From IMG/VR virus record IMGVR_UViG_2537561935_000023, positions 1 through 25,825 of that record: a DNA stretch of 25,825 nt; one strand, given 5' to 3'. Below are positions 11,574-12,303 of the stretch, piece after piece. This stretch comes from a virus. Taxonomy: Duplodnaviria; Heunggongvirae; Uroviricota; Caudoviricetes. How positions within the stretch are numbered: position 1 is the stretch's first letter; the number at the start of each line of letters is the position of its first letter. The notes below the pieces were generated by a model. The model ran no database searches and had not been told where the DNA came from. It was given only the letters and a program-made list of their open reading frames with translations. Made by a program: the position numbers and the translations under genes.

Positions 11574-12053
11574 TAGAAGGTTAGCTTGCGTCGGACTTGG
11601 CGTATTTAAAGAAGTGCTGGTGGTAACTGGTTGTTGTGTTCCATTTCTACAAAACAAAATCACAGAAACTATACCCAATAGTTATATTGAATCAATGATG
11701 AGACAGCCTCATATTTATCAGAACTGGTGTACGTCCAATACAGGAGGTTGTCGTGCTGGTTCTCAAATATGCGCTAGCTATTGCGGCTGTAATGGCAATT
11801 TATTGTCTTGCTATTGTTCTTACGGATCGCCTTTCTGATTGATTTTATATTGGCGAGGTGACGGGAGTTAAGTAGAATTGCTGCGGGTGCTTGAGGCTAT
11901 CTGCCTCAGGCATGAACACCAAAGGCAGATAGAGAAAAGCCCCAGTTAACATTACGCGTCCTGCAAGACGTTTAACATTAATCTGAGGCTCAATCTATGA
12001 ACGGCAAATCTAGGTTAGCCTCTTACGTGCCGAAAGGCAAGGAGAAGCAGGCT

Positions 12054-12209
12054 ATGAAGCAGCAAAAGGCGATGTTAATCGCCCTGATCGTCATCTGTTT
12101 AACCGTCATAATGACGGCACTGGTAACGAGGAAAGACCTCTGCGAGGTACGAATCCGAACCGGCCAGACGGAGGTCGCTGTCTTCACAGCTTACGAACCT
12201 GAGGAGTAA
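12054..12209 (+). CDS. hokD: Hok/Gef family type I toxin (51 aa), near-identical to HokD/RelF as recalled
   Basis: MKQQKAMLIALIVICLTVIMTALVTRKDLCEVRIRTGQTEVAVFTAYEPEE; single TM helix then conserved C-terminal periplasmic tail; GGAG-containing SD upstream; the in-frame upstream extension to 11997 is probably not translated. Confidence 0.9.
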   Translation: MKQQKAMLIALIVICLTVIMTALVTRKDLCEVRIRTGQTEVAVFTAYEPEE

Positions 12210-12277
12210 GAGACCAGGCGGGGGAGAATCCCTCGCCACCTCTGATGTGTCAGGCATCCTCAACGCACCCGCACTTA

Positions 12278-12303
12278 ACCCGCTTCGGCGGGTTTTTGTT
12301 TTT
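12278..12303 (+). terminator. Rho-independent terminator downstream of hok
   Basis: CCCGC-ttcg-GCGGG stem-loop followed by TTTTTGTTTTT. Confidence 0.6.

Follow-up and report, generated by a model that had tools for sequence, protein, structure and literature searches.

A 29-codon hydrophobic gene adjoins a complete hokD/hokW-type toxin-antitoxin locus in a Qin-like prophage of Escherichia coli

The 25,825-nucleotide stretch of DNA analysed here (IMG/VR virus record IMGVR_UViG_2537561935_000023, hereafter called the window) is a Qin-like lambdoid prophage of Escherichia coli. At the right edge of an island of variable cargo genes it carries a toxin gene of the Hok family, preceded by a hydrophobic open reading frame (ORF) of 29 codons. 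The question raised by this arrangement is whether the small ORF belongs to the leader region of hok and encodes a type I toxin-style peptide, as a sequence-only reading of the DNA had proposed, or represents something else. Very probably, two adjacent and separable modules lie side by side at the right border of the cargo hotspot: a hok/sok locus (11850-12297) and a small gene (approximately 11685-11856). Our best guess is that the product of the latter is a small inner-membrane protein modulating a membrane target or Hok, rather than a second toxin under antisense control.

The ORF extends on the plus strand from a GTG codon at position 11753 to a TGA at 11840-11842 and specifies the peptide MLVLKYALAIAAVMAIYCLAIVLTDRLSD. 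An AGGAGG Shine-Dalgarno (SD) sequence, read from the sequence at 11742-11747, precedes the GTG by 5 nt; both elements are present as the sequence-only reading had described them. Residues 6-24 of the peptide form an unbroken hydrophobic stretch, flanked by a lysine near the N-terminus (K5) and by a DRLSD tail, with a single helix predicted. Conservation was examined in 100 copies of the ORF, comprising that of the window, those of E. coli, Shigella, E. albertii and E. ruysiae chromosomes, and those of one pINV plasmid, four phages and 80 IMG/VR prophage contigs. The start codon, the frame and the position of the stop are intact in every one of them, across 25 nucleotide haplotypes and 15 peptide variants. 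A GGAG/GAGG core is likewise found at constant distance from the start in all 100 copies, with variable flanks. When the haplotypes were connected in a minimum spanning tree, 61 changes were counted, of which 33 are synonymous, 28 non-synonymous and none stop-related; with an expected synonymous fraction of 0.29, synonymous changes are in clear excess (binomial p = 7e-6). The replacements are conservative (I/V, A/V/T, M/V, D/E, S/T, R/H, L/F), and the pairwise pN/pS ratio is 0.34 in this frame versus 0.56 and 1.34 in the other two. Among 56 unique sequences of the commonest type, diversity amounts to 0.017 at codon positions 1 and 2 versus 0.070 at position 3, while the flanking non-coding DNA shows a value of about 0.05, some three times that of positions 1 and 2. 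From this substitution pattern, the 29-codon ORF appears to be a genuine protein-coding gene, and the sequence-only reading was right in singling it out.

The module is common within a narrow group of bacteria. A 281-nt segment containing it (11600-11880) was recovered at a coverage of at least 80% from about 1,700 of 5,426 complete E. coli genomes, and the ORF is also found, intact and with an ATG start, on more than 120 pINV plasmids of Shigella and enteroinvasive E. coli (EIEC). A scan of genome contigs returned Escherichia and Shigella only, besides evidently contaminated contigs of metagenome-assembled genomes. When 1.84 billion proteins were searched with a 30-aa translation from the window, only the peptide itself was retrieved, with artefactual N-terminal extensions, and neither Pfam nor NCBIfam gave a match at E <= 10. 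The allele of the window (C6Y, M24T) is a minority variant, carried by 4 of the 100 copies; the REL606 allele reads MLVLKCTLAIVAVMAIYCLVIVLMDHLSD (protein ACT39199.1). The ORF is unannotated in every RefSeq copy examined, and a few GenBank records list it as "membrane protein" or "hypothetical". In phage HannyBb (PP925841.1, 2454-2743), two hypothetical genes are annotated on the opposite strand over the region; these are probably miscalls over the plus-strand ORF. Literature searches turned up neither the peptide sequence nor a small ORF next to hokD or icsP, and a 2026 preprint surveying Hok proteins makes no mention of the peptide.

How does this gene relate to hok? It ends 8 nt before the -35 hexamer of the hok promoter and 43 nt before the hok transcript start. 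Since its end precedes both, the ORF lies outside the hok mRNA, upstream of the leader, and not inside the leader region where the sequence-only reading had placed it. The 5' end of hok is found exactly 130 nt after the start of the ORF in 95 of the 100 copies. The other five have no hok; there, the ORF is followed by a bidirectional terminator and a convergent gene of the TehB family. Conversely, in hokW loci of Shiga toxin (Stx) phages the homology to the window begins at about 11865 and extends rightwards only, so that the ORF is missing. Because it also occurs without hok, both in prophages and on the pINV plasmids of Shigella, we regard the 29-codon ORF as a separate gene.

The pINV copy of the set (L012; EIEC plasmid NZ_JBLWMG010000002.1, about 840-1182) deserves a separate description. 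The ORF is intact, begins with ATG and lies approximately 250 nt upstream of icsP; downstream of it there is a hok-type promoter (TTGGCG-17-TAGAAT), and the hok leader that comes next breaks off after ~45 nt. The region upstream of icsP is usually treated as non-coding regulatory DNA. Should the peptide prove toxic or able to modulate Hok, a coding sequence would be placed inside this much-studied "intergenic" region.

A candidate sigma-70 promoter for the small gene can be proposed at 11687-11715 on the plus strand, with TTGAAT (11687-11692) and CATATT (11710-11715) separated by 17 nt. The hexamers are kept in the divergent groups (pINV, groups 2 and 3) and the sequence of the spacer diverges; on these grounds the support for this site is moderate. 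Between this site and the SD, a motif GT(G/A)TACGTC(C/A)A (11726-11737, GTGTACGTCCAA) is nearly invariant in all divergent groups despite changes in the neighbouring bases, and is possibly a regulator site or an RNA element. Farther to the left, a non-coding block accompanies the ORF (11557-11684, no strand assigned). The alignment of 20 copies ends at about 11557, and the DNA to the left of that point is strain-specific cargo. Nucleotide diversity in the block is 0.047, close to that of the third codon positions of the ORF, which indicates little constraint; Rfam has no family matching the block or the ORF region.

The messenger of the 29-codon gene would originate at this weak promoter or, equally possibly, by read-through from the phage early-right operon, and would be translated from the strong SD and the GTG start. 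The peptide would cross the membrane once, with K5 in the cytoplasm and the acidic DRLSD tail outside. Several points count against this view. The candidate promoter fits only 8 of 12 consensus positions, and its -35 hexamer is absent from about 10 of the 100 copies and from E. albertii. No terminator separates the ORF from hok, and the ORF may be present only on read-through or 5'-extended hok transcripts. The 95% linkage to hok at a fixed spacing of 130 nt could reflect a functional tie instead of mere adjacency. Finally, all copies come from a narrow Escherichia/Shigella clade, where shared ancestry inflates apparent conservation; the contrast between synonymous and non-synonymous changes is less sensitive to this effect.

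The second module, at 11850-12297, is a complete type I toxin-antitoxin locus of the hokD/hokW type, a kind already known and already annotated. All its parts are present: a hok promoter, closure of the mRNA through tac-fbi pairing, a 5' hairpin, in-frame mok and hok, a Sok RNA on the minus strand and a terminator. The mok-hok reading frame (11997-12209, plus strand) encodes a 70-aa Mok from ATG 11997 and a 51-aa Hok from the in-frame ATG 12054, with the stop at 12207-12209. Hok matches the Pfam family HOK_GEF (PF01848) with 82.3 bits and E 1.8e-23, over model positions 1-42 of 42; E is 4e-23 for the 70-aa form and 2e-23 for the 51-aa form. Positions 12054-12209 are annotated as hokD in RefSeq records of identical genomes, and the 70-aa Mok form is widespread in protein databases. 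A protein search with Hok yielded near-identical sequences only, unusable for building a diverse profile. An intrinsic terminator, identified by a terminator scan and by folding, is found at 12277-12294 on the plus strand and is followed by a T run. The claim that a complete Hok-family gene with its own terminator lies at the edge of the cargo island is thus borne out.

The hok promoter (11850-11878, plus strand; TTGGCG-17 nt-TAGAAT) was identified by a promoter scan and is kept in 95 of the 100 copies. The transcript is predicted to start at about 11885, where the Rfam model of the hok leader also begins. This model, RF01794, matches the plus strand at full length from 11885 to 12059 (111.7 bits, gathering score 59; E 6e-25). 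Although named "sok antitoxin", it describes the sense strand between the transcript start and the AUG of hok; since it covers the sense leader paired by Sok, and not Sok, strand calls based on RF01794 are inverted. In both the minimum free energy (MFE) and the centroid folds, the 5' element tac (11882-11896, plus strand) pairs with the fold-back inhibition element, fbi, in the 3' untranslated region (12258-12273, plus strand). The pairing includes a perfect 9-nt inverted repeat, and the fold of 11880-12300 has an energy of -176.7 kcal/mol (z = -7.4 relative to shuffled sequences). The fbi element is nearly invariant across copies. Indeed, both arms vary so little among 95 copies that covariation is uninformative for either side. 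Just downstream of tac, a 5'-proximal hairpin (11897-11932, plus strand) is seen in the MFE fold as well as in the Rfam model, where it is the first helix. Its inverted repeat has the arms CTATCTGCC (11898-11906) and GGCAGATAG (11925-11933), within an imperfect repeat of 21 nt. The sequence-only reading had noticed this repeat and ascribed fold-back control to it; the repeat exists, but it forms the 5'-proximal hairpin, and the fold-back pairing is that between tac and fbi.

The same reading had anticipated a Sok-like antisense RNA opposite 11900-11995. Such an RNA is encoded opposite the leader, with different limits: about 70 nt long, it is predicted to span from ~12005 to 11932 on the minus strand, downstream of a sok promoter read from the sequence at 12012-12040 (minus strand), with TTGCCT (12040-12035) and TAACCT (12017-12012) separated by 17 nt. 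In its fold, an unpaired 5' tail leads into a long hairpin, with the U run GGGGCUUUUCUCU behind it (-29.8 kcal/mol, z = -5.0). Sok is complementary to the mok SD (GAGG, 11983-11986) and to the mok start codon; the ribosome-binding site of mok and ATG 11997 fall within the complementary segment 11932-12005. The published mutagenic oligonucleotide YO-421, which reads across the -10 region of sokW, overlaps the TAACCT hexamer, and the published sokW Northern probe YO-592 matches the Sok segment.

The control steps can be proposed from this anatomy and from the R1 and Sakai prophage 5 (Sp5) systems. A hok mRNA of about 415 nt would be made from TTGGCG-17-TAGAAT and, as long as its 5' end is paired with the 3' fbi element, would remain closed to translation. 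Trimming at the 3' end would cause the mRNA to refold, allowing translation of Mok from ATG 11997 and, with it, of the in-frame 51-aa Hok membrane toxin. Sok, transcribed from the opposite strand, would cover the ribosome-binding site and start codon of mok, block translation and target the duplex for RNase III. As far as can be judged from its sequence, this copy of hok/sok bears no sign of inactivation. Codon 46 of hok (Tyr, TAC followed by G; 12189-12192, inside CUUACGAAC) lies in a UACG context. According to a preprint (bioRxiv 10.1101/2025.08.07.668861), this context is subject to A-to-I editing by TadA, with a Tyr to Cys change, in the hokB, hokC, hokD and hokE mRNAs. By analogy, editing may be needed for full toxicity of this Hok as well.

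A close relative of the locus, hokW-sokW, is carried by Sp5, the Stx2 phage of E. coli O157:H7 (Takada et al. 2021, PMC8621323). It occupies the same lambdoid position, between the replication genes and Q, and it also has a 51-aa Hok with an in-frame mok. The sequence-only reading had called for a comparison with characterised hok/sok leaders, and the leaders proved nearly identical: the oligonucleotides for the 5' end and the sokW -10 region and both Northern probes fit the window almost base for base, with few mismatches. The Sp5-type loci differ from the window in sharing DNA from about 11865 only, in having neither the 29-codon ORF nor the conserved block upstream of it, and in the C-terminus of HokW. 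In Sp5, HokW is toxic and sokW protective, mutations in the sokW promoter abolishing protection and unmasking toxicity (PMC8621323).

Another relative is hokD (relF) of the K-12 Qin prophage, which is likewise inserted between rspB and ydfJ; in both cases rem is the downstream neighbour. The Hok of the window presumably differs from K-12 HokD by about one residue. K-12 hokD is said, in a description attributed to Pedersen and Gerdes in 1999, to be devoid of the hok leader and of sok, relBE being directly upstream; unlike the gene so described, the hokD copy of the window has every regulatory element. With hok/mok/sok (parB) of plasmid R1, the window shares the tac-fbi closure, the 5' hairpin, mok-coupled translation and a Sok of about 65-70 nt that covers the ribosome-binding site of mok; the leader of the window also fits the Rfam model, which was built on the R1-type family. 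The window copy differs in residing in a prophage rather than on a plasmid and in the arrangement of mok, which is in frame with hok and extends it at the N-terminus, as mokC does; the mok of R1 overlaps hok in another frame. The hok/sok part of the region brings no novelty: the locus is of the textbook kind and already annotated, and a close homologue of it has been tested experimentally.

There remains the function of the 29-aa peptide. TisB, ZorO, Fst and Hok-type toxins resemble it in size and in having a single hydrophobic helix and a short charged tail, and its gene has a type I toxin as its neighbour in the prophage. A promoter-like site on the minus strand (TTAACT-18-TAAAAT, 11871-11842) is directed into the ORF, and one of the folds allows pairing between the SD and CCUUUCUG, which lies in the last codons. 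These features might suggest two tandem toxin-antitoxin units, with the peptide as a second, membrane-damaging type I toxin whose action an antisense or divergent small RNA (sRNA) would restrain, an interpretation that we consider unlikely. The -10 of the minus-strand site varies (TAAAAT, TGAAAT, TGTAAT, TTTAAT), its -35 is missing from the copies without hok, and no minus-strand promoter or terminator for a cognate antisense RNA is conserved across the divergent copies. The mRNA is no more stable than shuffled sequences (z = -0.95). Compensatory changes are lacking in the helices that would sequester the SD, and these helices are disrupted in divergent groups, the covariation term of the consensus fold being only -1.47. 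The upstream block, where a divergent sRNA might be encoded, is nearly unconstrained, and one copy has a 14-nt deletion there. No match of the Rfam, Pfam, NCBIfam or PADLOC type was obtained. In size class, single helix and short polar end, the peptide is reminiscent both of enterobacterial type I toxins (TisB, ZorO, Ibs, ShoB) and of regulatory small membrane proteins (MgtS, AcrZ, KdpF, MgtR); it has no sequence similarity to any of these, and no cognate sRNA was found. An sRNA antitoxin may be encoded in trans. Since a cognate antisense promoter, an unusual mRNA structure and similarity to Hok or another family are all lacking, the type I toxin label put forward in the sequence-only reading is unsupported, and only size and hydrophobicity fit it. 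Even more distant is the idea that the ORF is what decay has left of the N-terminal part of a second, tandem hok gene. By eye, the peptide does resemble the first half of Hok, with a basic residue, some 19 hydrophobic residues and D-R-L-S-D in place of R-K-D-L-C-E. Yet a Hok hidden Markov model, made from nine Hok-family sequences and the Hok of the window, gave it -1.6 to 1.1 bits, and 29-98% of its own shuffles scored at least as well. HOK_GEF gave no match at E <= 10, no DNA repeat is common to the ORF region and the hok locus, and no longer relatives with a continuing frame were found; such an origin is highly improbable.

A role as an accessory of hok is also doubtful in our estimation. 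The peptide might be an antiholin-like partner or antagonist of Hok, or the ORF might act as an upstream ORF on a 5'-extended hok transcript, altering mRNA folding or promoter activity. The exact spacing and the terminator-free interval described above speak for such a role; many hok loci devoid of the ORF keep its last ~22 nt (homology from about 11820), suggesting an ancestral pair, and both the peptide and Hok are predicted to be single-pass membrane peptides with the N-terminus inside. On the other hand, copies without hok, or with hok deleted, still have the intact ORF, the complementarities of the ORF region to the 5' end of hok are not conserved in divergent copies, and hokW-sokW is fully functional in Sp5 without the ORF (PMC8621323). 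One could also suppose that no protein is made and that conservation results from recent descent or from an overlapping DNA or RNA element, such as sequences upstream of the hok promoter. This would agree with the silence of the RefSeq PGAP pipeline, with a family confined to Escherichia and Shigella without distant homologues among the 1.84 billion proteins, and with the GTG start in 99 of the 100 copies. It is difficult to reconcile with the frame-specific synonymous excess, with 25 haplotypes free of stops and frameshifts at up to 23% nucleotide divergence and showing conservative replacements, with the threefold faster evolution of the flanking non-coding DNA relative to codon positions 1 and 2, and with an SD that is kept where adjacent bases change; we judge it quite improbable. 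A small inner-membrane protein encoded by a separate gene is thus the interpretation that we favour. A bolder proposal would see in the peptide a new, lineage-restricted membrane effector paired with Hok, either a second toxin with an unseen RNA antitoxin or a partner that tunes pore formation by Hok during prophage induction. We hold out little expectation for it; if it were true, the Shigella virulence plasmid would have kept the gene upstream of icsP for an independent, selectable activity.

For annotation, the gain, a modest one, is a 29-codon gene beside hok that is constrained at the protein level and absent from RefSeq. Should the peptide prove toxic or capable of modulating Hok, it would matter that "hok-sok" deletions in carrier strains may or may not include the ORF.

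Other candidate elements of the region were examined and discarded. The alternative cysteine-rich frame of 74 aa that the sequence-only reading had pointed out is present at 11614-11838 and is not a gene: its start region is deleted in one copy (14 nt, L003), indels of 1-2 nt occur in three others (L009, L010 and L016), the N-terminal half is missing from the divergent groups, and 10 stop-related changes fall on the haplotype tree. A sequence complementary to the SD and start of the 29-codon ORF (11536-11553) lies in strain-specific cargo and is found in no other copy. A pairing between 5' and 3' sequences around the ORF shows no covariation and is broken in divergent groups, and the complementarity of 11701-11718 to the hok 5' end and the Sok target is not conserved.

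The surroundings of the two modules are those of a resident prophage. The 761 bases used as query (11560-12320) match many E. coli chromosomes at 100%, for example those of UK_Dog_Liverpool and 042, and in the annotated record a defective lambdoid prophage is inserted between rspB and ydfJ. The gene order is integrase, excisionase, exonuclease, ydfD, dicB, replication genes, variable cargo, hokD and rem, followed by DUF968, rusA, the Q antiterminator, tRNAs and remnants of late genes. The hok locus and the 29-codon ORF thus mark the right edge of the variable island, whose genes next to them change from strain to strain. In the window, the cargo (6224-11325) includes an anti-phage defence protein, PD-T7-1 (7716-9065, minus strand; PADLOC E 7e-157), an integrase fragment (9377-9985) and three proteins without a family match; other strains have SIR2, AIPR, FRG, DUF4209, QueH or MFS genes at the same position. 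The region looks like a hotspot for defence and moron genes with its right border at about 11557. Past the Q antiterminator, ARAGORN identified four tandem tRNA genes (15421-15730), with the assignments Met-CAT, Lys-TTT, Thr-TGT and Gly-TCC. Three are found in Rfam (at the gathering threshold) and three in RefSeq, the additional ARAGORN call being Lys-TTT (15498-15574). The first tRNA of the cluster is annotated as tRNA-Ile in RefSeq, which would imply a lysidine-modified CAT anticodon.

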